NCBI GenBank assembly: GCA_963807635.1 | Contig: CAWEDJ010000093.1 | Location: 34,119-98,118, forward strand | Length of the DNA: 64,000 bases | Direction of reading: 5' to 3' | Source of the DNA: an uncultured cyanobacterium | GTDB lineage: Bacteria > Cyanobacteriota > Cyanobacteriia > Cyanobacteriales > Microcystaceae | In this document: one piece after another, positions 11,844-60,432 of the stretch | Layout of the letters: each line of letters opens with the position of its first letter | How positions within the stretch are numbered: the stretch's first letter is position 1 | The notes under the pieces: generated by a model | Databases searched by the model: none | Seen by the model: the letters and a program-made list of their open reading frames with translations, nothing else | What the model was told of the DNA's origin: nothing | Translations under genes and position numbers: made by a program

Positions 11844-12130
11844 TTATTTTTCCATAAACTTTAACAACTATACCAGTTTTCCATGAATATTACAGATGCA
11901 AATCTCGCTTATTTTCTTGAGTAAACCTCAATAATGAGCTTTTGGGAGTATTATGGGTGTTACGATATCTAGACTCAAAAATATCTATAAAAGCTTGGCG
12001 ATCGCGTTTTTTATGGTCAGTGATTAGGCCATATATATCTAAATTTAACCCATCGCTCTTTATTTAGCCTTTTCATCGACAGGAGCATCAATATCGAAAC
12101 AAATGACAACCTGATATATCTGAAAAAACT

Positions 12131-12252
12131 CAGGATCTTAATTTTTAAACTTGATACAACTGCATAACTTCTGTAATCGGTAAACGCGATCGCACTCTCA
12201 AATTTAGATCAAAAAAAGATCGCCTTTTTTAGGTTTAACGAAAACGATCGCC
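12131..12252. repeat. Copy of the tsaD 3' end and flank plus a HIP1-to-HIP1 segment (distal repeat)
   Basis: CAGGATCT...AAACTTGATACAACTGCATAACTTCTGTAATCGGTAAACGCGATCGCACTCTCAAATTTAGATCA matches 13204-13285. Positions 12186-12251 also match 12939-13005. Confidence 0.9.
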
Positions 12253-12266
12253 CTTTGACAAGAAAG

Positions 12267-12593
12267 CTATTCATCATCTTCAGGTAATAAAGGCTTTTGG
12301 GCTGAATGTCTGACAAAAAGAACTTGTACCTCATCCTCTATAACTGTAAACAAAATTCTGTAGGTATTCCGTCCTTTGCCATAAATAAGCTGCCGAATTT
12401 CTTCTCCAAAAAAAGAATTTTCAAAGGCAAGAGAACAACGCAACGGCATTTGTTGAAGGGACATAATTGATTTGTATAAACCTTCCAGCCAAATTCGACC
12501 CTGTCGTGGAGACGAGAGACTTAACCATAGGTAAACATCCTTAATTCCTTGCTCTGCTTCAGGCTGAATAATAACCCGATATTGACCAGTCAT
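12267..12593 (-). CDS. Type II toxin, RelE/ParE family
   Basis: YRVIIQPEAEQGI..., LQQMPLRC, YRILFTVIEDEVQVLFVRH. ATGA-coupled to the upstream antitoxin. Confidence 0.85.
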   Translation of the reverse strand: MTGQYRVIIQPEAEQGIKDVYLWLSLSSPRQGRIWLEGLYKSIMSLQQMPLRCSLAFENSFFGEEIRQLIYGKGRNTYRILFTVIEDEVQVLFVRHSAQKPLLPEDDE

Positions 12594-12881
12594 TGTTCAA
12601 TGTCCCACTGGGCAAACAATTCTACAAAAACTTCTTCTGCTCTTTTACCTTGACCTTGCTTCATTTGTTCGAGGGCCACGCTTAAGGCCCTTAATCGTTT
12701 CCAGTAATTCCGCAGCATTGAGAAGTTCCTGATAGGATTGAGCATCCTGTACGACTAATTCTGCTTTACCATTAACCGTAAGGATCAGAGGGTGTTTGGT
12801 TCGCTTTAAATTTTCTAAAAACTCGGTTGTATTTCGCTTGAAATCAGTGAGAGACCGGATATCTTTGGTTAGCTCAATCAT
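12590..12881 (-). CDS. Type II antitoxin, Phd/YefM family; +1 indel at GGCC ~12674
   Basis: DIRSLTDFKRNTTEF...PLILTVNGKAELVVQD. The corrected frame ends ...LEQMKQGQGKRAEEVFVELFAQWDIEQ* and overlaps the toxin ATG. Confidence 0.88.
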
Positions 12882-12938
12882 AGTTTTAGCACCTAATACG
12901 CATTGAATTATATGCTATCACAAATTCATTTCTTCTGT

Positions 12939-13005
12939 GCGATCGCACCCTCAAATTTATATCAAAAAAAAGACCGCCTTTTTTCGGTTTAACTAAAGCG
13001 ATCGC
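12939..13005. repeat. HIP1-bounded direct repeat (proximal), partly derived from the tsaD 3' end
   Basis: GCGATCGCACCCTCAAATTTATATCAAAAAAAAGACCGCCTTTTTTCGGTTTAACTAAAGCGATCGC resembles 12186-12251. Confidence 0.85.
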
Positions 13006-13217
13006 GCATTAATTTTAAAAAATAGACTAATTTAGTCCTTATTAAGGGGTTTAGCTAATTTACGTTTTGTCCAAACTCCTCCTTCAAAAAGAAGTGTGCT
13101 ACCAATAACGGAAAGTGCAAGTGATTTTGGCGTAATCAAGTAGCATTCAGTAGAAATGGAGACATGACTTCTTTTTATCTGCATTCCCATCCGTATTATC
13201 ACCCAGGATCTCAAAAG

Positions 13218-14260
13218 CTAAACTTGATATAACTGCATGACTTCAGTAATCGGTAAACGCGATCGCACTCCCAAATTGAGATCAGAAAAATGACCGAGAT
13301 CGCAATGATCGGCCGCCGCACAGGCAATCATGGCCGCATTATCGGTACAAAATTTAAGAGGGGGAAAATAAACCTGAAGATTATGTTTTTCAGCCGCTTC
13401 TTGTAAATGGTGACGCAAACCACTATTGGCCGCCACTCCTCCCCCGATCGCGATCGCTTTAATGCCGTAATCTAAGGCACACTGAATGGTTTTTTGCGTT
13501 AAAGATCGAGCCACCGTTTCCTGAAAACTAGCCGCTAAATCCTCGATCGGTAAGGTATCGGTTTCTTTTTCTAATTGGTTCACTAATCGCAAAACCGCCG
13601 TTTTCAAACCACTAAAACTAGAATCGTAGGGATGATAACCGCCCTGGGGCAAGGAAATTCGACCAACTGGCAGAGGAAATGCTTTAGGATTGCCTGTTTT
13701 AGCCAGTTTATCGATCACGGGCCGCCTGGATAACCCAACTTTAATAAACGAGCCACCTTATCAAAGGCTTCTCCTGCGGCATCATCACGGGTTATGCCCA
13801 ATTGTTCGTATTTTCCGCAATCTTTCACCAAAATCAGGCTAGTATGTCCCCCTGAAACCAATAAACAAAGAAAAGGAGGCTCTAATTCGGGATAGCTCAA
13901 ATAACTGGCGTAAATATGTCCTTCTAGGTGATGCACCCCAATAAATCTTTTTTGATGAACCAACGCCAACGTTTTGGCCGCTGTCATCCCCACCATCAAA
14001 GCTCCCACCAGACCTGGCGCAACCGTCGCCGCGATCGCGTCAATGCCAGACCAATCTAACTGACTTTCCGCTAACACCTGTTCAATACAGGGATTAATCA
14101 GGGTTAAATGTTGACGAGAAGCTACCTCTGGAACAACTCCGCCATAACTAGCGTGAACTGCAATTTGGGAGGCCACAATATTACTGCAAACGTTACGATT
14201 CTTTACAATGGCGACGGCAGTTTCATCACAGCTTGTTTCGATTGCTAAAACGGTTGCCAT
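13218..14260 (-). CDS. tsaD: tRNA N6-adenosine threonylcarbamoyltransferase TsaD; -1 indel at GGCCC ~13718
   Basis: [73 protein letters not shown]. Confidence 0.95.
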
Positions 14261-27242: not shown

Positions 27243-28095
27243 TCACGAAGAACGGTGTTGAATGCCTGGGGATGAATTCATCCTCGGTAGATTCAACTGT
27301 TGGAAAACCTGGCGATTTTGGATCAATACAAAGGTCGCCACTGCCAACAAAAAATAACCAAAGCTTTTTTGTAATTGTTTAGCTGAAACAAATTGGGCTA
27401 AATAACTTCCTGCGATTGTTCCCAGGGCGGCGGCAAAGGTAAACGAAACCGTCAGAGGCCAATCGATCGCAATATGCCCCAGATAACCTAGTAAACCCGC
27501 GATCGAATTCAGCGCAATAATTAACAGAGAAGTCGCGATCGCCGCTTTCATCGGGATATTCCCCAACAAAACCAAAGCGGGAACAATAGCAAATCCTCCC
27601 CCCACGCCCACCAATCCTGTCAGAATCCCCACTCCAATGCCTTCCGTCATTAGCCAAAGCCAGCAGTATCTACAGACAGGTTCGGGATACAGTTCCAACT
27701 CTGACGGCAGATCCTTGGGTTTCTGAATCTGGGAGACGCGACGAATCATAAATCCTGCGGCCAATAACATCATCACTGCAAATAAAAGCATCTGAAAGGT
27801 TGCCGTAATAAAGGGCATAGTAGCCAATCTTGCTCCCCCAAAGAGCCCCGATCATGGTTGCCGAACCAAAAATCAACACGGTTTTCAGATTGATATTGCC
27901 CCGTTTCCAGTGGGGAATGGTTCCCAAAAGGCTCACTGTTCCCACAATAATCAGGGTCATGGCGATCGCGGTTTTAGGGGATACTCCCATGAAATAAACC
28001 AGAATAGGCAAGGCAAGAACCGATCCACCGCCCCCCAAAAGCCCCAGGCTAATACCAATGCAAACGGCGAGAAAATGCCCAACAAGCCAGGTCAT
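27243..28095 (-). CDS. Sulfite exporter TauE/SafE (TSUP) family; +1 indel in G-run ~27835
   Basis: GISLGLLGGGGSVLALPILVY, GILTGLVGVGGGFAIVPAL, AIATSLLIIA. Confidence 0.9.
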
Positions 28096-28693: not shown

Positions 28694-29392
28694 TTAAGAA
28701 ATTAGAGCAATATTGCCACAGCGTTCATTAGCGGGGACAGCTTCCATGATTTTTTTGGGATTCGGTAAGTCCAAACTGTCCATAAATTCGATGAATTGTT
28801 GGCGATCGCGCCCTTAAAACGGGGATTAAATTGTTTTTCTTCGCCGATGGTAGAAACGGTTAAACCCCGATAATCGTGACCAGGATAAATCTGGGTGCTA
28901 TCAGGTAGGGTAAATAATCGTTGGGTCACCGAATCAAACAGAATACCCGCATCTCCACTCTGGAAATCCGTCCGACCACAACCCCGAATAAAGAGTGCAT
29001 CTCCTGTCAACAGGTGAGTCCCATTAACCAAATAGGCCATGTGGCTATCGGTATCGGCCTGGTGTTGCGATCGCCCGAATCACGATGTTTCCCAGGGTGA
29101 TTTCTTCCCCGTCTTCGATAAAGAGATCGGCACAGTCGGCCTGGGCATTTTTAGGAACAATACCTTGACATCCCGTCATTTTACGAAACTGTCCCGTTGC
29201 TGTGATGTGATCGGCGTGGATATGGGTTTCTAGGGAATATTTGAGGGTAAGTTCTAATTGCTCCAATACTTGAAAATCCCGTTCAAATTGCTCCAAAACG
29301 GGATCAACCAAGAGTGCTTCCTGGGTAACGGAATCAGCGACGAGGTAAGTATAGGTACTGGTTTCAGGGTCAAACAACTGACGAAATAACAT
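28694..29392 (-). CDS. MBL-fold persulfide dioxygenase (ETHE1/PDO-like); two compensating indels at GGCC sites (~29055, ~28810)
   Basis: [62 protein letters not shown], and AVPANERCG in the corrected frame. Confidence 0.9.
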
Positions 29393-29453
29393 GGTCTTCT
29401 CCTGAGATAGGGATCGGGTAAGCCTAGAAAATCTCAACTAAGCTCATAACGTT

Positions 29454-29864: not shown

Positions 29865-29956
29865 CCTGCCAAACCTAAAAAATATTTCTCATCCGACCCT
29901 GATCGCGATAATCTGTGAGATTGATCAAGAATGTTACAACAGGAATCACAACTATT

Positions 29957-30490
29957 ATGAATCAGCGAGGAGTTACCCTTTGGTTTACGGGATTAAGTGG
30001 TGCGGGGAAAACCACTATTACTCAGGCTCTAGAAAAAAAGTTAAGGGAAAGCAGTTACGGAATTGAGGTTTTAGACGGAGATGTGGTTCGTACCAATCTG
30101 ACGAAGGGCTTGGGTTTTAGCAAGGCAGACCGAGATGAAAATATTCGTCGTATCGGCTTTGTTTCCCATCTTTTGACCCGTCATGGTGTAATTGTCTTAG
30201 TTTCCGCGATTTCCCCCTATCGCGATATTCGTGAAGAAGTCAGACAAAAAATTGGTGATTTTGTAGAAATTTTTGTCAATGCTCCCCTAGCAGTGTGTGA
30301 AGGGCGAGATGTCAAGGGTCTTTACGAAAAGGCAAGAAAGGGAGAGATCAAGGGATTTACAGGCATTGATGACCCCTATGAAGAGCCGTTAAATCCTGAA
30401 GTGGAATGTCGCACGGACTTAGAAAGTTTGGAAGAAAGCGTCGCAAAGGTCTGGGCAAAGTTGATAGAACTCGGTTATGTTGCGGGTTAA
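29957..30490 (+). CDS. cysC: Adenylyl-sulfate kinase
   Basis: WFTGLSGAGKTT, LDGDVVRTNL, DRDENIRRIG, ISPYR, RDVKGLY, FTGIDDPYE. Confidence 0.97.
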   Translation: MNQRGVTLWFTGLSGAGKTTITQALEKKLRESSYGIEVLDGDVVRTNLTKGLGFSKADRDENIRRIGFVSHLLTRHGVIVLVSAISPYRDIREEVRQKIGDFVEIFVNAPLAVCEGRDVKGLYEKARKGEIKGFTGIDDPYEEPLNPEVECRTDLESLEESVAKVWAKLIELGYVAG

Positions 30491-30524
30491 AGATTGAATT
30501 TTTCAGTGATTTTGAAAATAAGGA

Positions 30525-30554
30525 AAAGAGGGATAGGCGCATCTCTCTTTTTTT
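30525..30554 (+). terminator. Rho-independent terminator of cysC
   Basis: AAAGAGGGAT...ATCTCTC followed by T7. Confidence 0.6.
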
Positions 30555-30563
30555 ATGAACAGT

Positions 30564-30592
30564 ATTCCCATTTTTTCAAGTGATCGCACTTA
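30564..30592. repeat. Degenerate copy 4 of the glycosyltransferase 3' end (HIP1 variant GTGATCGC)
   Basis: ATTCCCATTTTTTCAAGTGATCGC versus native ATTCCCATTTCTTCCAGCGATCGC (21/24). Confidence 0.7.
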
Positions 30593-30594
30593 TT

Positions 30595-30918
30595 CTAAAC
30601 ACAAGAAACTGAATAAACCTTTATATCAACCTTCAATATTTTTCGTAAAATATCGAAAATTAACGTCAAATTTTCCATTGTCGGATTGCCTTTTGCTGAT
30701 AACATACGATGCAAACTTTTACTGGGTTTTGATGTGGCAATTGCTAGTTCTTCAAATCCAATAGTGGCATTAATCAATTCTCTTAAAATAAGTCTAGCGG
30801 TTTCTGGCTCACCATTTAGAAAAAGAGAAACTGCTTCATCTAATAAAGCTTGTGCGAAAGCGGGATCACCTTGAATGCGGGAATTAATTGTTTCACTATA
30901 ATCTCTAGTTAAGGACAT
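30595..30918 (-). CDS. Addiction module antidote (HigA-like HTH antitoxin)
   Basis: MSLTRDYSETI...DPAFAQALLDEA...LRELINATIGFEELA...KSLHRMLSAKGNPTMENL. Confidence 0.85.
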   Translation of the reverse strand: MSLTRDYSETINSRIQGDPAFAQALLDEAVSLFLNGEPETARLILRELINATIGFEELAIATSKPSKSLHRMLSAKGNPTMENLTLIFDILRKILKVDIKVYSVSCV

Positions 30919-30932
30919 AATAATCACCTATT

Positions 30933-31264
30933 TTATTCTGTATTTTGAGAATTTTTCTTGCGTTTTTTGTATTCCTGAAATAATTCGAGAGACTTTTGAA
31001 TATCCGATTGTTGGCGTTTCTTAGTTCCACCCCCAAATAGGATAATCAATTCTTTGCCATCCTGAGCTAAGTAAATCCGATAACCTGGCCAAAGTCGATT
31101 CTATATTCACCGATTCCATCAAACCATTTAATATTTGATGTATTACCTAAAGCCAAGCGAGATATGGCAACAGTTATTTTTACAGCCGCTTGAGCATCCA
31201 AGCTATCAAACCATTTTTGATAAGGAATTGAGCCGTCTTCTCTGACATATTCTTGAACTCTCAT
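30933..31264 (-). CDS. Addiction module killer (HigB/RelE-like toxin); -1 indel at GGCC ~31086
   Basis: EYVREDGSIPYQKWFDSLD, RLALGNTSNIK, EYRIDFG(P)GYRIYLAQDG...LFGGGTKKRQQSDI. Confidence 0.85.
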
Positions 31265-31275
31265 ATTGATTTAGA

Positions 31276-31291
31276 GTAACTTATAAGTTAC
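31276..31291. promoter_or_regulatory. Perfect 16-bp palindrome, probable antitoxin operator
   Basis: GTAACTTATAAGTTAC just upstream of the toxin ATG. Confidence 0.65.
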
Positions 31292-31310
31292 CTTTGGTCA
31301 ATGGAGTTAC

Positions 31311-31342
31311 TCCAATTTCTCAAGTGATCGCATTAATTTTCC
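31311..31342. repeat. Degenerate copy 3 of the glycosyltransferase 3' end
   Basis: TCCAATTTCTCAAGTGATCGCATTAATTTTCC versus native CCCATTTCTTCCAGCGATCGCGTTAATTTTTC (24/32). Confidence 0.6.
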
Positions 31343-31412
31343 CATTCCAACAGACTGACGACTCACTTACCCTATTGATTTAGCTAAAATATAGATTATT
31401 GAGGAAAAACTG

Positions 31413-31775
31413 ATGACAACTACGATTGAAACTGATTTAAAAGAAATCTTGAGCGAATTTAAGCAAGAATTTGTCAAAATCAACCAAAGATTAGACAAAA
31501 TTGATGAAACTGTCACAGATCTCAAAGTGAATCAAGTCCTTATGGAAGAACGATTATCAGGACAAATTAACCTACTTGATGAAAGATTATCAGGACAGAT
31601 TAACTTGCTGGATGAAAGATTATCAGGACAAATTAACCTACTTGATGAAAAAGTGTCAGGACTAGGTAAACGCCTAGAAAATCAAGAATTTACCAACCGA
31701 GGTATTTTAATTGGGTTGATCGTTGTTGTTTTAGGAGGAGCGGCTAAAGTCTTTGGCTTTTTTCCTAATCCCTAA
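31413..31775 (+). CDS. Small coiled-coil protein with C-terminal TM anchor (cyanobacterial DUF4164/XhlA-like type)
   Basis: TIETDLKEIL..INQRLDKID..., KRLENQEFTNRGILIGLIVVVLGGAAKVFGF, with GAGG RBS. Confidence 0.75.
   Translation: MTTTIETDLKEILSEFKQEFVKINQRLDKIDETVTDLKVNQVLMEERLSGQINLLDERLSGQINLLDERLSGQINLLDEKVSGLGKRLENQEFTNRGILIGLIVVVLGGAAKVFGFFPNP
31548..31661 (+). repeat. 33-bp in-frame tandem repeat (3 copies plus a partial)
   Basis: GAAAGATTATCAGGACAAATTAACCTACTTGAT units encoding ERLSGQINLLD. Confidence 0.95.
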
Positions 31776-31780
31776 GATCA

Positions 31781-31834
31781 AACTAGATCATTCCCATTCC
31801 TTCCAGCGATCGCGTTAATTTTTCTGCTTCAGGA
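31781..31834. repeat. Near-perfect copy 2 of the glycosyltransferase 3' end (52/54 nt)
   Basis: AACTAGATCATTCCCATTCCTTCCAGCGATCGCGTTAATTTTTCTGCTTCAGGA versus 32318-32371. Confidence 0.95.
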
Positions 31835-32005
31835 AACTGCTTTAGTTTTCTGCTTGACAGGACGATAAAACAAACCCCGTTGAGCATCGCTCCAGTCCGT
31901 AACCTCTGGAATATCATTAGTATTAATCTGATCATCTGGTAAAGCGGCCAACGCTTCGAGTTCTGCCTTTTGTTCAGCAGTCAGATCAGAAATTGCCTTC
32001 TTCAT
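31829..32005 (-). pseudogene. BrnA-type antitoxin, C-terminally truncated
   Basis: MKKAISDL..ELEALAALPDDQINTNDIPEVTDWSDAQRGLFYRPVKQ then stops inside the repeat. The usual 'ITLRLD...GYQ' RHH half is absent. Confidence 0.7.
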
Positions 32006-32276
32006 AAGCCCTCCGTTCATGCTGTGTTGCTTTACGTGCGCTGATAATTCGTCCAACTTCTTCACCACTTTGGGGATCATACCCAGGGGATGTATGTACT
32101 ACAAATATTATTACATAATTTACAAAACCGAGAGTTTGCCAACGCTCTTCATTAGGATAGGGATCGCGCCGACTCATGGCTAGAGGATCATCAAAGATAA
32201 GCTGTGCAACCTCAAAACTAAGACCATGCTTTAGCTTATTTGACCTATTTTTTGCTTCATTCCAAATCCAATGCAA
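31986..32276 (-). CDS. BrnT family toxin
   Basis: WNEAKNRSNKLKHGLSFEVA..IFDDP, EERWQTLG, VVHT, RIISARKAT.HERRAY. Confidence 0.9.
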   Translation of the reverse strand: MHWIWNEAKNRSNKLKHGLSFEVAQLIFDDPLAMSRRDPYPNEERWQTLGFVNYVIIFVVHTSPGYDPQSGEEVGRIISARKATQHERRAYEEGNF

Positions 32277-32319
32277 ATTCTATCCTCACATTCTAGTCTA
32301 ACATTAACATTTAGGATAA

Positions 32320-33511
32320 CTAGATCATTCCCATTTCTTCCAGCGATCGCGTTAATTTTTCGGCTTCAGGAGATTGTTGTAATTCATATAAACTAATCGC
32401 TTTTTTAAACGCTTCTAAACTTTCCTGTAATAAACCCGCTTTAAAACAAGTGACTCCTAAATTTTGATAAGCCTCTGCATAATTTGGATTGAGATTAATG
32501 GCTTTTTGATAAAGCGCGATCGCGTCCTGTAATTGTCCCTTATCTTTTAGTAACATGGCTAAGTTGTAATAACCGACTGCAAAGGTTGGATTCGATTTTG
32601 AGAATCGTTTCGTAGGCTATTTGAGCATTTTTAACATCTCCGACCGATTGTAATAAACCTGCAAAATTATTAAAAGCTCCAATTTTTAATTGGGGTAAAA
32701 TCGGCTGATTAATCGCTTTTTGATAATGTTTATTAGCCAGTTCCCATTTCTTTTGATGTAAATAGGCATTGGCTAAATGGTAATGTAATTCAAAGGAAAT
32801 AGGGACACTCGCGGTATTGACTTTTAATCCTTGTTTTAATAATTTTAATCCTTCTTTTTCCTGTCCTAGTTGTAAATATAAAGCTCCTAATTTACTGCAA
32901 ACATAGGGATCATTCGGATTTTCTTTAAAAGCGTTTTCTAATAAAGATTTAGCGCGACTAGCTTTATCGTTGGTTTGTAAAGCTTCGGGAGTATAGCCAG
33001 AATGGAGAATACTAACTATGGGGAACTCGACAATATTCCAGTGGGGTTCCTGTTTCAATAACTCTAAAACACTATCATCAATGGTTTCGTGGTAGGGACG
33101 GGAAAATTTGATTGCGGGATGGTTCCGAAACAGTCGAGAAACGGCAGAATAGGGAGACTGGACGGCACCAATTTCATGACGAATCAGGTTAACTACTAGG
33201 GTATTTTCTTGGGCAATAGCAGATTTTACATCCTTAATTGCATTGCTATTAAATATTTCATCGCCATCTAAGACCAAAATCCAATCGCCTGTGACCAATT
33301 TCAATGCTTCATTTCTCGCGATCGCAAAATCGTCTCCCCATTCCTGAGATGCGGTAACGGCTCCAAACTCCTGAGCAATTTCTAGGGTGCGATCGCTTGA
33401 TCCCGTATCTAAAACGACAATCTCATCGACTAAATCTTTAACGCTGGTAAGACATTGGGCTAAATTCGCGGATTCATTTTTGACGATCATGCAAAGGCTG
33501 AGTTGAACCAT
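32320..33511 (-). CDS. GT2 glycosyltransferase with C-terminal TPRs; +1 indel in GATC ~32591
   Basis: LSLCMIVKNE, VVLDTGSSD, DFAIARN, WILVLDGDE, with TPRs continuing into ORF 32320-32556. Confidence 0.9.
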
Positions 33512-33592
33512 AGGATTTTTTGGGATAGGGGGCGTGTGATACTTTAAAGAGACTGTCTTTTTTTCTATCGTTTCCGACTTTTCCAATTTACT

Positions 33593-34799: not shown

Positions 34800-36300
34800 G
34801 TGAGTTGTTTAAGGGCAATGAATAAAAAAACGTTAGTTTCCCGCATTTTTCGGATTTTACTAGGAAAGAGATCTAAAAAAAATAAATCGAGAGTGGGAAT
34901 TACAAAAAATCCTAATACAAATACCGTTACTAATTTAGACTCTTTTTTTCTTTATTATCAAACCAAATTAGGGTTGAAATTAAGATGGTTTTTGAACCAT
35001 ACATTAGGATATCTAATTGGCTTTCCCATATCAATGACGACTGAGTCTTGTTTTAAGATTGTTAAGAAGTTTAATATCGGCTTTTTTGGATTAGAAGAAG
35101 AGAAATACAATCAAATAATAAATCAACATAAAAAACAGTTTTCAACTTATTATGATCTTGCCATAATTATTTTATTGATAAGTTTAAGCTTCTTCATGTT
35201 TTTTCTGCAATCATCTAATATTTTAAAAGTTTTTTTCGATTCCACTATTGCTACTCTTATATTTTTTATTTTTTCTGCAATAATTATGCCGTCTATATTC
35301 TTTAGACTACTATTTAGACTTATGGATTATTTAAGTCCTGAAGCTTTATGTGCGATGCAGATTATAGATTTAAATCTTGAATTGTCAAGAGATGATGTCA
35401 TTTATAAAAGAAATGTTAAAAGTATGGTTCTTTTTAGGATGGACTATTTAGCTAGGGTGACAATGCTAATTCCTTGGCATTATAGTATAGGAAGAAATGC
35501 TAATCAAAAATGGATTCAACAACATTTTCAAAATATAGCTTATTATATTCGAGAAAGGCGAAGATGGCTAATTACTCCAACGGAAACAACCCTAGAAGAT
35601 ATCAGAAAAGATTTTCGACAATTGGCTTATTTATATTTGACGGGATTATATGGAAATTGGCAATGGCAATCTGTTAATTTAGAAACTGAAGTTGTCAAAC
35701 CCACATTCCGCAGGTTGACTCAATGAAAGAGACAATACATTTGTACTACTTTTTTTCTCCATAGATTAATTTGTTGATTAGCAAAACTCTTGGAAAAGCT
35801 ATGTTTCTTATTTGGCAAGGCTTTGAAGGTTTTTGGACTAAAAATATTTCCCTTTTTCATTGATCTTTTCATCAAACGAAATGAGATCATTTGTCATCAA
35901 TAAAAAGATACTTGCTTGATTCCGTATCATCCCAAGCCTCTTTTTCGTTTTGGCATAAACTCATGACAAAAATGAAGATCGTCAAAACACTTGCTCTGTA
36001 AGGATTTCAAAATTGTTTAAAAGTTCCTCAGAACCTGCGGAATGTGGGGTCAAACAAACTCGTTTTCAAAAAATACAAGAGACTTTAATCAGATTTTTTG
36101 GTATTCTTTTACCACTTATAATTATGGGATTATTGATGTTATTTCCTGGTACATTTACCAATCCTAATGCAAAAATTCTTGAAAACTTACCTTATATTTT
36201 TATTGCCTGGCTTCTTGTTTCTCTTGATATAACCTTAAAGTTAGGTGTAATCGAATCATTAACAAAATTAATTACAGGATTAAAAGATTTAAGTAAATAA
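34800..36300 (+). pseudogene. AT-rich multi-TM hypothetical protein interrupted by a MITE
   Basis: Removing 35700-36054 joins ...LETEVVK to QTRFQKIQETLIRFFG... in frame (~381 aa from GTG 34800). Confidence 0.8.
35700..36048. mobile_element. 349-bp non-autonomous MITE with IS1634-like ends
   Basis: Perfect 17-bp TIRs CCCACATTCCGCAGGTT (35700-35716) and AACCTGCGGAATGTGGG (36032-36048), 6-bp TSD GTCAAA (35694-35699, 36049-36054), no transposase ORF. Confidence 0.92.
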
Positions 36301-36337: not shown

Positions 36338-36360
36338 AGAAAATTAAACGCGATCGCCGA
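36338..36360. repeat. HIP1-containing direct repeat, left of hicAB
   Basis: TAGAAAATTAAACGCGATCG resembles TAGAAAATAAACGCGATCG at 36983-37001. Confidence 0.6.
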
Positions 36361-36375
36361 TTAAACTTACAAATA

Positions 36376-36588
36376 TTATACTGAAATTAATTTTGAATAA
36401 CGGGGTACAGGAACTGGATCGCTAAATTCTTGAGCCGTATCAATCCATAATTGAATCGCTTCTTGAATATTTTCTAAAGCAGAAACTTGAGTTTTTCCAT
36501 GTGCCATACAACCTGGTAATTCAGGAACTTCAACCACAAATATCTGATCTTCTTCACTCCAATACATAAATAATTGATACTTATACAT
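36376..36588 (-). CDS. hicB: HicB family antitoxin (short form)
   Basis: YWSEEDQIFVVEVPELPGCMAHGKT...ALENIQEAIQLWI...PVPVP. Confidence 0.9.
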   Translation of the reverse strand: MYKYQLFMYWSEEDQIFVVEVPELPGCMAHGKTQVSALENIQEAIQLWIDTAQEFSDPVPVPRYSKLISV

Positions 36589-36593
36589 TAAAA

Positions 36594-36842
36594 TTACTCT
36601 CCTAACTGATATTTAATAATAATTTCTTTGACCTGACGAACTTGATAGCCCTTGGCTTTATTGCCATCTTTCTGCAAATTCGGCTTTTCTTCAATTCCTT
36701 TTTTTCTGAAGATGTGATGTCCCCCACGAATCCGTTCTTCAAAGCCTAAACGTTTTAATAATTGATACAATTCGTCGAAGAGAATATTAGAGTCGGAATT
36801 CCCTGCGACAATTTTTTGTAGTAGTTTTTCATATTTACCCAT
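36594..36842 (-). CDS. hicA: HicA family toxin
   Basis: LKRLGFEERIRGGHHIFRK...NLQKDGNKAKGYQVRQV. Confidence 0.9.
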   Translation of the reverse strand: MGKYEKLLQKIVAGNSDSNILFDELYQLLKRLGFEERIRGGHHIFRKKGIEEKPNLQKDGNKAKGYQVRQVKEIIIKYQLGE

Positions 36843-36982
36843 TTCTAAAGATTATATCAAAATCAATTTCATTCAACAAGATGAAAAATACACACTGTGA
36901 CTTAAACTAACGAGAGATTTTTCTCTAATAATTCTATCAATTAATTTGCTAAATATGATTATCCCATTGATAAAAAGTCGAT

Positions 36983-37003
36983 TAGAAAATAAACGCGATC
37001 GTC
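36983..37003. repeat. HIP1-variant direct repeat, right of hicAB
   Basis: TAGAAAATAAACGCGATCGTC. Confidence 0.6.
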
Positions 37004-37069
37004 CTTTTCGTGATTCCGTCTATGGTGACTACGAGGATTGAGTCAAATTAGTCGGAATCTGGTTCTGGA

Positions 37070-37903
37070 CTAAACTGTAGGCGGAAGATTTACTTTTTGC
37101 ACTAAACCCAAACTTTTCAATACCCAAATTGACCACCAAGTTACATCAACTTCCCACCACCGCCAACCTGCTTTGGCAACCTGGGGATAGGCGTGATGAT
37201 TATTGTGCCAACCTTCGCCATAGGTAAAGATAGCAGCCCACCATAAATTGCGAGAATTATCGGGAACATCAAACGTACGATAACCCCACATATGGGTGAC
37301 AGAATTAATCATCCAGGTGCTATGCCAGAGCAGAACAACTCGCACTAGCATTCCGTAAATTACCCATGACCAACCCCCGATTAAATAAAGAATGATCGCC
37401 AGGGGAATTTGTAAGAAAAGAAAATAACGATTTAACCAGCGATAAAAACCTTGGCGGACTAAATCGGGCGCAAATTTTTGATATTTTTCGTATTCAAAAA
37501 ATTCAGGTTGGGGATAAAAAATCCAGAGCATATGGCTCCACCAAAAACCCCGTTTAGCAGAGTAGGGATCTTGATCAATATCTTCTGTGTGAGCATGGTG
37601 CAAACGATGACCCGCGACCCAGAAGATCGGCCCACCTTGTAACGCTAAGGCTCCAATAATCGCGATCGTGTATTCGAGCCAATGGGGAACTTGTAAACTA
37701 CGGTGACTTAATAAACGATGATAGCCGAGACAAATGCCGATACTGCCAAATAACCAATGAAGAAAAAGGGTTACCGCAACGGCAGACCAGGAGAAGAACC
37801 AAGGAGCCAATAGAGTAAGAACGTGAATGGTTCCAAAGAAGAAAACAGCAACCCAATCTAGTGGCGCACGAGTCGGTTGAGCGGGAATTAAATTAGTTGT
37901 CAT
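37070..37903 (-). CDS. desF: Delta-9-type acyl-lipid desaturase of the low-oxygen operon (DesF/DesC2-like)
   Basis: His boxes HRLLSH, HRLHH, HNNHH. It is the last gene of acsF-ho2-hemN, as in Synechococcus sp. PCC 7002. Confidence 0.8.
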   Translation of the reverse strand: MTTNLIPAQPTRAPLDWVAVFFFGTIHVLTLLAPWFFSWSAVAVTLFLHWLFGSIGICLGYHRLLSHRSLQVPHWLEYTIAIIGALALQGGPIFWVAGHRLHHAHTEDIDQDPYSAKRGFWWSHMLWIFYPQPEFFEYEKYQKFAPDLVRQGFYRWLNRYFLFLQIPLAIILYLIGGWSWVIYGMLVRVVLLWHSTWMINSVTHMWGYRTFDVPDNSRNLWWAAIFTYGEGWHNNHHAYPQVAKAGWRWWEVDVTWWSIWVLKSLGLVQKVNLPPTV

Positions 37904-37973
37904 GAATTCTGGAAAAAGTACAAATAGAAGAAATGGGTAAAAGTTTTTTCAGTGATATATGAAAAGAACTCTT

Positions 37974-40249: not shown

Positions 40250-40412
40250 GATCCCCCCTACCCCCCTTGATAAGGGGGGCTAAATTCTAATGAATAGCCT
40301 AGCCTTTAGCGAAATAAAATACCGTACCGATATTAGTTTTGATAAGAGGGGCTAAATTCCGATAAATAACCCAGTCCCCCTTATCAAGGGGGATGCCGTA
40401 GGCAGGGGGATC
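40250..40412. repeat. Cyanobacterial CCCCCTT..AAGGGGG palindromic repeat cluster
   Basis: GATCCCCCC...CCCCTTGATAAGGGGGGCTAAATTC, a second TGATAAGAGGGGCTAAATTC, and an inverted CCCCCTTATCAAGGGGG...GGGGGATC. Confidence 0.75.
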
Positions 40413-40443
40413 AAACCTTGGTTGATAGAGAAACATTTGTAAA

Positions 40444-53077: not shown

Positions 53078-53113
53078 ATTTTCAAGGTTTTAAGACTTAA
53101 AATCCATATAGAA

Positions 53114-53140
53114 TAAGGACATAATATATTATGTCCCTAC
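53114..53140 (-). repeat. GTAG-type REP-like palindrome
   Basis: Reverse complement GTAGGGACATAATATATTATGTCCTTA matches 57273-57299 at 24/27. Confidence 0.7.
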
Positions 53141-53194
53141 CAATATTTTTCTATCATTACAAACCAATCTGCTGTATTGACTACGGATTTAACA

Positions 53195-53755
53195 ATGAAA
53201 CTATTAACGCCTCATCCTAAAAAATTCACAACAGAATCCTATCACAAAATGTCTGAGCTAGGACTTTTTCAAGAAGGCGATCGCCTAGAATTAATTAAAG
53301 GAGAAATCATTGAAATGTCCCCCGTCGAATTGAAACACGCTTCTTGTGTTAAAAGATTGAATCATTTATTTATGAAAAAACTGGGAGATCAAGTTATTGT
53401 AGGAGTACAAGACCCTATTCAGCTTGACGATAATTCTGAACCTCAGCCCGATTTAGTATTATTAAAACCTCGTTCAGATTTCTATGCTAATGAACATCCC
53501 CAACCAAAGGATATTTTACTGTTGATTGAAGTTTCAGATAGTAGCGTTGAGTATGATCGAACTGTTAAAATTCCCCTTTATGCGGAAAATCAAATTAGTG
53601 AAGTTTGGTTAGTTGATCTCAATGAAAGCTGTTTGGAAATTTACCGAAAGCCCTATCAAAATTATTATCAAAATACCCAAAAACTCTCAGTTATCAACAG
53701 TATTATTTTAAGCAATTTTCCTGAATTTGAAATTAAAATTAGTGATTTATTTTAA
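53195..53755 (+). CDS. Uma2 family (DUF820) PD-(D/E)xK endonuclease
   Basis: FTTESYHKM, RLELIKGEIIEMSP, EPQPDLVLL, LLIEVSDSS..YDR.VK..LYA...EVWLVDL. Confidence 0.93.
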   Translation: MKLLTPHPKKFTTESYHKMSELGLFQEGDRLELIKGEIIEMSPVELKHASCVKRLNHLFMKKLGDQVIVGVQDPIQLDDNSEPQPDLVLLKPRSDFYANEHPQPKDILLLIEVSDSSVEYDRTVKIPLYAENQISEVWLVDLNESCLEIYRKPYQNYYQNTQKLSVINSIILSNFPEFEIKISDLF

Positions 53756-53777
53756 TTATTAAACCCCTGGGAGGCCT

Positions 53778-58334: not shown

Positions 58335-58436
58335 TAAGCTGTCGCGCATTTAAATTACATAGTGTTTTTTCTAAAAGCTTTTTAACAAGGAGCTTAAGCC
58401 CCTTGCCTGTATGCAGTTTAGATGATTAACAGCTTA
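58335..58436. mobile_element. ~100-bp miniature inverted-repeat element carrying an internal palindrome
   Basis: Imperfect TIRs TAAGCTGTCGCGCATTTAAATTACAT and ATGCAGTTTAGATGATTAACAGCTTA enclosing CAAGGAGCTTAAGCCCCTTG. Confidence 0.55.
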
Positions 58437-58782
58437 CCGAACCTGTCTTGCCAAACTAACAAACAAAATGCCAAAATCAAATTCCTCAAAAAGGTTTAAA
58501 CAACTTCCTGTTTCTTAAATTCTCTAAAATCAATTAATAAATCATCAATTTCGGTTTGTCGCATTCGGAACGCTTCATTATAAATAATGGACAAACATTT
58601 ATTGAATTGTTTGGGTAATAGGGATTCATCTAGTAATTTATTAAATAATTTGGGGAATGAAAATAATCCATAGGTACTACCATAATTTTTGCTACTACCC
58701 GTTGCGGTGAATAAATAGTGATAGGGAAAGATATTTTTTTCAGAAATGTCGGAACAAAAGAAAGCCAAAAAGATAATAAATA

Positions 58783-60432
58783 GGGCTTGCTGAAAAAGTC
58801 AAAAAACAGGAAGAGGGGATTAATTTATGAATTTAAGGCGAGTAAAACATAAGGGTTAAATGAATTGTCAACACAAAGCATAAGCTGGGCTAATAAGAGG
58901 GCAGAAAAATAAGCTCTTCTTCCGAAAAAGACAAAAAAAACGTAAAACCTGCCGAAGCAGGGCAAAAAGATTGATGACTAAAAAGGTGATAGCAATAGCG
59001 GTTTCAGAGGTATCAGGAAGTTTTGTCATAACTCGATTGAGGCTAAATCGTCTCTTTGCTTGACCAAATTTGCCTTCAATAGCATTACGGTCTCTTTCAT
59101 CTTGAAGAGCTTCTTTCTTTTTTTCTGGACTAATATTTGTGGGTCGTCTTCCCAAGGGTGGGCCACTCAATCGAATTCCCTTCTCCTTACAAAAAGCGCG
59201 ATTTTCCCTTGTGCGATAGATTGCATCAGCATGAACAGACTGGGGATAGTAGCCTGTCTCACGTTTAAACTCTTCTATTTGTCCTTTGAAGTCGCCTGAT
59301 TCATTATAATTATCCCAACTTAATCGGTATAAATAAAGATATCCATTCACATAACTTGCTGATAGTTTTGCACCAAACTCTACTGGCGTTCCCGCTTTTC
59401 CTCTAACAATGGGACGAACATGAGGTTGAGTCAAACTCACAATTCTATTTTCTACCTTATTTTCTTTATTTTCATACATTCCTACTTGTTGCTCATAGGC
59501 TTTTTGTATTATCGACAGTATCTTTTCGTCTTTTTTACTTAATTTTGCGACCTCTTTATCTTCTCTTAATTTTTCTATATGGGAAAGGTTTCTTTTGATA
59601 TATTGGATTTGTTTTTTTATGCCCTTTCTCCTTTCTTTTCTCGACGGACGGCGTTTTTTTGACAATTTTAAGTAATCTTTTCTGGCTCTTATTCTATAGG
59701 TTCTTGGTTTTTTTCCTTTTTTTTTAGTTTTTTTATACAAGTTGTCTATTATTTTTTCGGTTTTTTCTCTTGCCTCATTCAAGATTCCTATATCTGTTGG
59801 ATATTTGATGTCTGCTGGTGCACAGGTTGCATCTATTAATAGCTTTCCTCTATTCTGATTTTCCCCTTCACTTTTTTCTTTTACTTCTGATAATATTTCT
59901 TCTTCTTTTTTTACCATTGCTTTATTTATTTGATTCACCAAGTCCATTCCTATTCTTTGACGGAAATGTACTAACAGTGACGCATCAAATGCCTCCTCAT
60001 TTTCATATACTTCTAGTCCTATAAAATATTGTAAGTAAGGGTTTTCTTTTATTTGTTCTACTGTTTCTCGGTCACTTATTCTCAATATTTCTTTTATTAT
60101 TAATGACCCTAATGCCATCCTAAATGGTTTGGCTGTCGCTCCTTTATTTTCTGAAAATTGTTTTGCATATTCTTCTTCAAATTCCTCCCACGGAATTATT
60201 TTTGACATGATTACCCAACGATTTTCTTCTTTTGGCTTCCACTCACTTGGTATTTTGAAGTTTTCAACAGTCGATTTTTCGGATTCTTTTTTGGGGTACA
60301 TCGTTCAATGCTCTGGAAGGGGAGGGGTGCAAGCCTTTTCACTCATTTTAGACCTTTTTTTTGCACTTTTTTTGCTCTCTAAATCCCCTCATCTCTTTTC
60401 TTATAAGGCTTTCAGCTTTTTTCAGCAAGCTC
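58783..60432 (-). mobile_element. IS5 family insertion sequence (~1.65 kb)
   Basis: TIRs GGGCTTGCTGAAAAA and TTTTTCAGCAAGCTC. Flanking duplication TAAATA (58777-58782, 60433-60438), equivalently AAAT if the TIRs are 1 nt longer. Confidence 0.93.
58868..60301 (-). CDS. IS5 family DDE transposase
   Basis: ENRWV..IPW, SDRETVEQIKENPYLQYF, LIDATC, RPIVRGKA..VEFGAK, HADAIY, RNAIEGKFGQAKR. Confidence 0.95.
   Translation of the reverse strand: MYPKKESEKSTVENFKIPSEWKPKEENRWVIMSKIIPWEEFEEEYAKQFSENKGATAKPFRMALGSLIIKEILRISDRETVEQIKENPYLQYFIGLEVYENEEAFDASLLVHFRQRIGMDLVNQINKAMVKKEEEILSEVKEKSEGENQNRGKLLIDATCAPADIKYPTDIGILNEAREKTEKIIDNLYKKTKKKGKKPRTYRIRARKDYLKLSKKRRPSRKERRKGIKKQIQYIKRNLSHIEKLREDKEVAKLSKKDEKILSIIQKAYEQQVGMYENKENKVENRIVSLTQPHVRPIVRGKAGTPVEFGAKLSASYVNGYLYLYRLSWDNYNESGDFKGQIEEFKRETGYYPQSVHADAIYRTRENRAFCKEKGIRLSGPPLGRRPTNISPEKKKEALQDERDRNAIEGKFGQAKRRFSLNRVMTKLPDTSETAIAITFLVINLFALLRQVLRFFCLFRKKSLFFCPLISPAYALC

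Follow-up and report, generated by a model that had tools for sequence, protein, structure and literature searches.

Toxin–antitoxin units stacked between HIP1-containing copies of a glycosyltransferase gene end in a cyanobacterial genome

How do small toxin–antitoxin genes come to stand in a row behind an ordinary chromosomal gene, with no mobile-element gene visible beside them? The question is raised by a locus within 64,000 nucleotides of DNA (this whole stretch is called the window here) from an uncultured cyanobacterium of the Microcystaceae (GenBank assembly GCA_963807635.1, contig CAWEDJ010000093.1, positions 34,119 to 98,118 of the forward strand), where the 3′ end of a glycosyltransferase gene recurs three times downstream of the gene, each copy being built around the palindrome HIP1 (GCGATCGC) or a variant of it. 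The function of HIP1 is unsettled after three decades, and the integration of chromosomal toxin–antitoxin systems “remains unclear” in the words of a 2026 study (PMC13617665); the present genome links the HIP1 puzzle with the entry of toxin–antitoxin genes in the absence of visible mobile-element genes. The repeats are there, the units between them vary among relatives, flanking sequences have been reassorted around HIP1, and HIP1 is associated with toxin–antitoxin genes across the genome. Our preferred reading, which on balance we think probable, is that the locus is a stack of HIP1-to-HIP1 units built and reshuffled by recombination between short (~25–150 nt) HIP1-containing copies of the gene end.

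The four copies, which we call D, C, B, and A from the outside of the array toward the gene, are all direct and start in register at 30564, 31308, 31790, and 32327 in our repeat search, with spacings of 744, 482, and 537 bp. Site A (32318–32384, HIP1 at 32343–32350) is the gene's own 3′ end, the host being a GT2-family glycosyltransferase gene with C-terminal TPR repeats (32320–33586, minus strand). Site B (31781–31847, HIP1 at 31806–31813) is a gene-end copy that matches A at 60 of 67 positions, so that the A/B pair is the longer one (67 nt, 90% identity), and sites C (31308–31357) and D (30564–30594, the outermost) have the variant core GTGATCGC at 31324–31331 and 30580–30587, respectively. 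A minus-strand gene for a BrnT-family ribonuclease toxin (31986–32276) lies between A and B together with a short BrnA-like open reading frame (ORF; 31829–32080, minus strand), an antitoxin by position whose last codons fall within repeat B. Between B and C is a plus-strand gene for a coiled-coil protein with a C-terminal membrane helix (31413–31775), and between C and D are a minus-strand gene for a RelE/ParE-type (HigB-like) toxin (30905–31264, read in two frames, 31067–31264 and 30905–31036) and a 110-aa partner ORF (30595–30927, minus strand), which is “HigA-like” by position only. An adenylyl-sulfate kinase (APS kinase) gene (29915–30490, plus strand; PF01583, E = 5e-66) is the neighbor of site D. 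The array of HIP1-bounded units described in an earlier note on this DNA is thus real, and the match counts given there (52/54, 24/32, and 21/24) were reproduced exactly, as were the spacings. Inverted repeats around the units are short and weak.

HIP1 is frequent in this genome, a 4.03-Mb assembly in 107 contigs with 41% G+C, in which GCGATCGC occurs 4758 times (1.18 per kb) and the rare variant cores 170 times as GTGATCGC and 173 times as the reverse complement GCGATCAC. As a null test, every one of the 9853 oriented G[CT]GATCGC sites in the genome was compared with copy A over 27 flank positions. Copy A scored 27 (rank 1), B 26 (rank 2), D 19 (rank 3), and C 17 (tied for ranks 5–7), and the bulk of the sites scored 5–9. 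The distal copies do better than random HIP1 flanks, and their high rank indicates that they are not ordinary HIP1 flanks and belong to a sequence family local to this locus. The earlier note had proposed that units are added with polarity, and a strict polarity is not supported: the copies do not become steadily less like A the farther out they lie, and the left flank of D is nearer to A than that of C. The pattern of similarity fits serial insertion at the gene-proximal HIP1, without proving it. The left flank of the outermost site is close to the gene's own end (15/16 positions in G004, one of the relatives that we designate G001 to G005, with G000 for the assembly under study), and a gene-like left flank at D is the residue to be expected from repeated insertion at the gene-proximal HIP1, which again falls short of a proof of polarity.

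Downstream of the glycosyltransferase gene, four species of the genus differ in what the array holds, as do metagenome contigs, and the breakpoints map to the repeats, in support of the earlier note. G003 is like G000 except for a deletion that takes out BrnT and the start of its partner ORF, so that 249 bp separate B from A, and in G004, G001, and G005 the coiled-coil gene stands directly behind the glycosyltransferase gene, with a single site. BrnT and its partner are found in G001 beyond site C, one unit further out, with the gene broken by a contig end; G004 has a different gene beyond site C, and there the 110-aa ORF alone adjoins the kinase gene; G002 has unrelated DNA downstream of the glycosyltransferase gene. 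A joint that skips exactly 537 bp (31780 to 32318) occurs in two of four metagenome runs, which come from different studies; one of these two also contains the filled BrnTA form, and the G003-type deletion is seen in two runs. Direct repeats that duplicate the gene end and a single-copy empty allele (G004, G001, and two of the four metagenome runs) are therefore both present. Metagenome contigs bridge 29875–31581, 30386–31423, and 31787–32359, from which we conclude that the array is not an assembly artefact. Gene-end duplicates were found only in the glycosyltransferase loci of four species of the genus, and none occurs within the 1.5-kb flanks of 24 glycosyltransferase loci of other genera. 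One part of the earlier picture is not supported, namely the coiled-coil gene as a mobile cassette, as it adjoins the glycosyltransferase gene in five of six genomes of the genus (G000, G001, G003, G004, and G005).

Some candidate joints in the metagenomes were rejected. Those from 30554 to 32327 and from 31051 to 32333, considered as empty arrays, have 27 nt or less on the shorter side and probably represent a relative's D or C site placed on A, and a joint that goes back 494, considered as a circle, comes from one run, has a shorter side of only 35 nt, and might stem from a tandem paralogue. As a separate observation, the G004 contigs C68 and C127 end in the same ~55-nt sequence, so that in this genome a single repeated element breaks into both the ParE gene and, at its far end, the glycosyltransferase array.

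The sites themselves record how their flanks have been combined. Site A joins a BrnT-borne left flank to the resident right flank of the glycosyltransferase gene; site B has a left flank continuous with the coiled-coil gene, as in relatives without BrnTA, and, on its right, a diverged copy of the gene's right flank; and the single site of G004 and G001 consists of the left flank of B and the right flank of A. The right flank of the coiled-coil unit, at site C, is preceded in G001 by the BrnT-borne left flank and elsewhere by two other left flanks, the HigB side in G000 and G003 and another gene in G004, making three different left flanks in total. By the informative differences, the exchange between A and B falls in an interval that begins 9 nt left of HIP1 and ends 12 nt right of it, and the reassortment of left and right flanks takes place within ~30 nt around it. 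On the combinations observed, the units are HIP1-to-HIP1 segments that keep their own ends and have been permuted between genomes.

Similar arrays are found at other genes. The second one in the window lies at the 3′ end of tsaD (12128–13290), with gene-end copies at 12128–12217 and 13201–13290, sites at 12186, 12939, and 13259, and units encoding ParE (12267–12593, minus strand) and Phd/YefM (12645–12881, minus strand); a partial copy of the tsaD end starts exactly at the HIP1 of 12939. The distal copy has an orthologue-like left flank (~4/58 differences from G004) and a diverged right flank (3/24), whereas the gene-proximal copy has a diverged left flank (~11/58) and a right flank identical to that of G004 (0/24), with the switch point within 26 nt that include HIP1. 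The diverged flank at tsaD is the coding one, which is the opposite of what a target duplication followed by decay would leave. At tadA, G004 has a precise single site, and the copies in G000 have resident outer and diverged inner flanks. Judged from these alignments, the tsaD and tadA chimeras are what one would expect if a diverged copy of the site had come in and been exchanged reciprocally at HIP1 or close to it; they would also be expected had a filled allele been transferred, with one crossover at each of the two HIP1 sites. In the glyS leader, which is on another contig, three sites enclose YoeB/YefM and a second small pair, and the repeat is a 50-nt left flank plus HIP1, with similarity stopping at HIP1. 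The glyS locus of G001 has a precise single-copy site with a 72-nt overlap, YoeB/YefM directly before glyS and another unit beyond, and no fewer than three units are present there in G004. A ParE/Phd core 91% identical to that of the tsaD array is found in G004 upstream of gltX, in a different array with its own HIP1 repeats. The arrays at different loci have nothing but HIP1 in common.

The tsaD and glyS cases came from a HIP1-anchored scan of the genome, and an unanchored self-BLAST gave a set of 90 isolated direct repeats (30–160 nt long, 150–3000 bp apart, and with no more than three copies in the genome). A HIP1-like site lies within 3 nt of a repeat boundary in 36 of the 90, against 6.6 expected from 200 random placements (binomial p = 4e-18), and HIP1-like sites are present in both copies in 32, against 8.5 expected from their density. 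Of 74 merged regions, 30 have HIP1 in both copies and 44 do not; we annotated every one of the former and the first 10 of the latter, and the repeats enclose toxin–antitoxin families in 15 and 6 of these, respectively (21/40 in total). HIP1 is inside the repeat in 15 of these 21 toxin–antitoxin regions and at its edge in 4 more. The other two (C5 29984 and C32 9087) have no HIP1 in or at their repeats, so a strict requirement for HIP1 is not supported. A census from the gene side took 30 BrnT, YoeB, and Phd loci, looked for a direct repeat within 3 kb, and used 300 random 600-bp intervals as the control: 11 of the 30 loci are bracketed, compared with 19 of the 300 intervals (Fisher p = 9e-6), and 9 of the 30 are bracketed with HIP1, compared with 2 of the 300 (Fisher p = 6e-9). 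A genome-wide scan for HIP1-edged duplications with toxin–antitoxin enrichment between the copies, which the earlier note had suggested as a check, is thus positive. A pilot comparison points the same way; among the ~28 boundaries of BLAST matches between window positions 1–60000 and G004, read by hand, four lie no more than 5 nt from HIP1 (1789, 8627, 31321, and 36358), with ~0.7 expected (binomial p = 0.004), and another (12930) lies at 9 nt. About ten of the repeat pairs are spaced 697–732 bp apart, and a common ~700-bp element was considered for them and rejected, as an all-against-all BLAST of the intervals found no shared sequence.

No dedicated machinery is apparent near the array. A whole-genome search with PF00589 found no tyrosine recombinase gene in the window; its six matches in the genome include, as the nearest, C93:18146–18643, ~46 kb from the array, and neither of the two serine recombinase matches is on the array's contig. 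The units encode only toxin–antitoxin or coiled-coil genes and no integrase. Folding of 91-nt DNA windows at copies A to D on both strands gave z-scores from +1.8 to −1.7, none usefully above shuffled sequences, and hence no attC-like fold. The earlier statements that integrase and attC are lacking here are therefore upheld, and the integron-like, site-specific chemistry that had also been suggested is not supported. The statement that the window contains no transposase was mistaken: a DDE transposase gene lies at 58868–60301 (minus strand), ~26 kb from the array, and it is the only one in the window, with none in or beside the units.

How might such a stack be built by recombination between gene-end copies? 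A unit would arrive on DNA that also bears a diverged version of the gene end, and this version would recombine with the resident one at HIP1 or right beside it. The source could be a circle that had been cut out of the same locus elsewhere, or a donor fragment acquired through natural transformation. What would remain is a direct repeat, its outer flanks resident and its inner flanks incoming, and later exchanges between repeats would remove, move, or add units. Toxin–antitoxin pairs may predominate because they are small and hard to lose. No dedicated recombinase would be needed, and the circular or linear nature of the intermediate, the part played by general recombination, and transformation as the route are what we infer. 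The candidate routes, which computation does not separate, are integration of a circle, one-sided homologous capture with a microhomology joint at HIP1 (which would account for polarity), and a HIP1-directed enzyme. Experimental work is in line with a role for HIP1 in such exchanges, as HIP1 within the homology arms raised integration in the transformation of Synechococcus PCC 7002, independently of addAB, and the authors of that preprint propose that HIP1 is a recombination hotspot (10.1101/2024.09.10.611283).

The last of these routes leads to an alternative that we consider unlikely, in which an unrecognized dedicated recombinase, or a HIP1-directed nuclease or nickase, makes the arrays true analogues of integrons with HIP1 as the core site. 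Such an enzyme would explain why the exchange windows at three loci all contain HIP1, why similarity ends exactly at HIP1 in glyS and in the partial tsaD copy, why HIP1 stands at repeat edges 5.5 times as often as expected, and why the arrays of different loci share HIP1 and nothing else. It is harder to reconcile with the lack of a candidate gene near any array examined (the recombinase matches being on other contigs or 46 kb away), with the 25–150 nt of flank homology that accompany every unit detected and would be needless in a purely site-specific system, with the 2 of 21 bracketed toxin–antitoxin regions that have no HIP1, and with the hybrid site of G001, which looks chimeric within its left flank and not in the core. 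A related and wider proposal, possible in our view though rather doubtful, is that HIP1 is the working crossover site of a cassette-capture system, for which any HIP1-bearing gene end or leader could serve as the attachment site and in which small toxin–antitoxin and other units would be added beside the anchor gene, excised, and re-ordered by a HIP1-recognizing activity, be it an unknown enzyme or a HIP1-stimulated branch of recombination.

Three further alternatives were weighed. An ordinary variable islet swapped by homologous recombination in the flanking core genes, with the repeats as incidental relics, is favored by the conservation of the glycosyltransferase and kinase genes beside the array and by the proposal, in the 2026 Photorhabdus study, that compact toxin–antitoxin islets spread through recombination in flanking core genes (PMC13617665); we regard it as improbable here, given that units are gained, lost, and re-ordered singly at the repeats and not as whole islets, that the exchange points are at HIP1 and not scattered through the flanks, and that repeats are 5.8 times commoner around toxin–antitoxin loci than around random intervals. 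The repeats could instead be target-site duplications from a staggered break, both copies being resident, as in transposition or in casposon or CRISPR-spacer integration. They are indeed direct copies of the target, and several span from one HIP1 to the next, as two offset nicks would give. However, repeat lengths vary from ~24 to 150 nt, the coding gene-proximal left flank at tsaD diverges more from the orthologues than the non-coding distal one, where decay predicts the opposite, and the BrnT-borne flank moves with its unit to another position in G001, all of which makes this origin quite improbable. As for the copies being HIP1 flanks that look alike by chance, a shared regulatory motif, or an artefact of assembly, the abundance of HIP1 (1.18 per kb) and a draft assembly with indels would invite such a reading, to which we nevertheless give almost no credence: the copies rank 1, 2, 3, and 5–7 among 9853 sites, the same structure is present in the independent assembly G003, and metagenome contigs bridge the array, and on these grounds the explanation was rejected.

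Recombination between HIP1-containing gene-end copies, our preferred reading, has several points weighing against it. It does not explain how a locus first acquires a duplicate. The divergence of the inner flanks might go back to an old insertion that relatives have since lost precisely, and not to a foreign origin. The ParE/Phd core found in G004 without its flanking site implies that movement between loci needs another, illegitimate step. The repeat scan was blind to units integrated at HIP1 without flank homology, which biases it toward a reading based on homology, and no circle or excision event was seen directly in the metagenome contigs. In 400-kb samples of two genomes of other genera (G022 and G018, one of them HIP1-rich), we found three and two such repeats, none of them HIP1-edged. 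The pattern, shown in one genus, may be confined to this lineage, and the assembly under study is itself a draft of 107 contigs with single-base indels.

Several known systems offer points of comparison. Integron arrays likewise stack small units by a fixed site with repeated sites between them, commonly carry toxin–antitoxin cargo, and vary in order among relatives; here, in contrast, there is no IntI gene and no attC-like folding, one unit has the opposite orientation, the units seem to have promoters of their own, and what is repeated is the end of the host gene itself, which differs by locus. Integrative elements that regenerate gene 3′ ends (attL/attR) share with our arrays the direct repeats that duplicate the gene end, the inner copy that arrives with the insert, and the single-copy empty allele, but the inserts here are only 0.5–1 kb long, lack an integrase, are stacked several deep, and have their crossover at HIP1. 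The pdif modules of Acinetobacter plasmids are Xer-dependent, include BrnTA and HigBA, and are shuffled between replicons; their sites are 28-bp XerC/XerD sites in alternating orientation on plasmids. The likeness lies in small modules bounded by short sites, whereas the sites here are direct, in-register repeats of chromosomal gene ends. In homology-facilitated illegitimate recombination, one homologous anchor and a microhomology joint add foreign DNA to naturally transformable bacteria without any mobile-element enzyme. As may hold for the arrays described here, this process would set the newest unit beside the anchor gene; we found no report of ordered arrays arising from it, nor of a specific abundant palindrome as the joint.

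Closer to HIP1 itself, a precise HIP1-flanked deletion is known at smtB in Synechococcus PCC 6301 (Gupta et al. 1993, cited in PMC13756078). This deletion and the engineered plasmids of the preprint mentioned above (10.1101/2024.09.10.611283) resemble our case in that HIP1 is at a precise excision junction in the one and raises integration when present in homologous DNA in the other; neither reports natural cassette arrays or a link with toxin–antitoxin genes. In Photorhabdus, a ParE/RelE pair lies between two res-I-like palindromes, with a single-copy empty allele, and has been read as an integration and excision hotspot (PMC13617665). According to that account, those sites go back to the resolution site of the Tn3 family, with a resolvase implied, whereas the sites here are host gene ends with HIP1. 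Our literature search, which had partial coverage and excluded supplements, returned no paper linking HIP1 to toxin–antitoxin cassettes or to gene-end duplications. What seems new here is the tie between HIP1 and gene capture; gene-end-regenerating inserts and cassette arrays are kinds already known.

About one-third of the toxin–antitoxin loci sampled in this genome lie between short copies of host sequence whose edges or exchange points are at HIP1, and the units of sister species at one locus differ exactly at HIP1 edges or exchange points. Were HIP1 truly a crossover site, the palindrome would acquire a concrete role in gene flow, and the arrays would represent an integron-like system free of integrase. 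The idea could be tested in transformable model cyanobacteria, and it suggests a design rule for marker integration, namely the use of short, HIP1-containing gene-end arms.

The genes of the locus differ in how well they can be assigned. The host glycosyltransferase matches PF00535 (E = 8e-25) in addition to TPR families, and has orthologues in 24 of 24 genomes of the family (open frames of ~400–460 aa) and in 36 of the 41 genomes searched overall; on this distribution, it is a core gene. BrnT is secure (PF04365, E = 5e-23, 81.6 bits against a cut-off of 34.5; phrog_4399, E = 3e-16). Of the BrnT/BrnA module named in the earlier note, then, the toxin stands, and its partner is BrnA by position only, with no Pfam match even at E ≤ 5 and a BLASTP E of 0.94 against a PF14384-positive BrnA of the same genome. 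The BrnA-like ORF overlaps the toxin gene, its homology to the G001 copy stops at ~31842, and the alignment shows no HIP1 at the end of the G001 BrnA. Its end falls in repeat B (31829–31847), and the ORF may encode an antitoxin that was truncated when the junction replaced its 3′ end. A similar qualification applies to the HigB/HigA-like module: the N-terminal piece of the HigB-like gene, a 65-aa fragment, matches TIGR02683 below the cut-off (E = 9e-8, 32.4 bits against 62.85), the gene also matches phrog_3445 “toxin,” and the 110-aa HigA-like ORF has no family match even at E ≤ 5, its label resting on position. This ORF is 94–96% identical in G003 and G004. PADLOC gave no match for the five unit proteins, and PHROGs gave only “toxin” labels. 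The coiled-coil gene has only weak family matches, with many paralogous matches in every congener; the paralogues include three in tandem on contig C47 of G000. It also contains three 33-nt tandem repeats (11-aa units) at 31543–31662, where a form skipping ~40 nt in all four metagenome runs indicates that the number of repeats is variable.

Certain features of the array turned out to belong to the draft sequence or to this genome alone. The cores of the two distal copies had been described as decayed, but T at 30581 and at 31325 is peculiar to G000, with C at both positions in G003, G004, and G001 and in contigs of three of the four metagenome runs, and GCGATCGC is intact in the relatives. The change is from C to T at the cytosine of CGATCG that is methylated by M.Ssp6803I-type enzymes (PMC6105098); it resembles deamination and could also be an assembly error. 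The glycosyltransferase gene reads as two ORFs (32540–33586 and 32320–32556) through a one-base indel near 32591, and the frame of the HigB-like gene is split in the assembly and not in metagenome contigs. Contigs of all four metagenome runs have one base fewer at 32591/32592 and an extra C after 31088, from which it follows that both splits are probably assembly indels and not pseudogenes. Further genes of the window that read as two ORFs are tsaD (13218–14260), a TauE-family exporter gene, and a metallo-β-lactamase-fold gene, the last assigned by reading its translation alone (window ranges 27243–28095 and 28702–29437).

Elsewhere in the window, several segments differ from the relatives. 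A ~350-bp segment at 35698–36054 is absent from the orthologous locus of G004 and matches many contigs of G003 and G004 at 73–83% identity; the segment probably represents a miniature mobile element that has inserted where a 308-aa ORF ends. The following segment, 36358–37963, comprises 1.6 kb with a HicB-like and a fatty-acid desaturase gene, where G004 has ~86 bp instead, and its left boundary comes directly after the HIP1 at 36350–36357. A Uma2-family (putative restriction endonuclease-like) gene occupies ~690 bp at 53083–53777, where G004 has ~30 bp, with no HIP1 at either boundary. A 78-nt element at 40339–40416 has several copies in G003 and G004, and the ranges 58335–58436 and 58777–58920 contain a ~100-nt repeat with dozens of copies in G001, G003, and G004 and, beside it and next to the DDE transposase gene (58868–60301, minus strand), an element end that coincides with many contig ends of G001.

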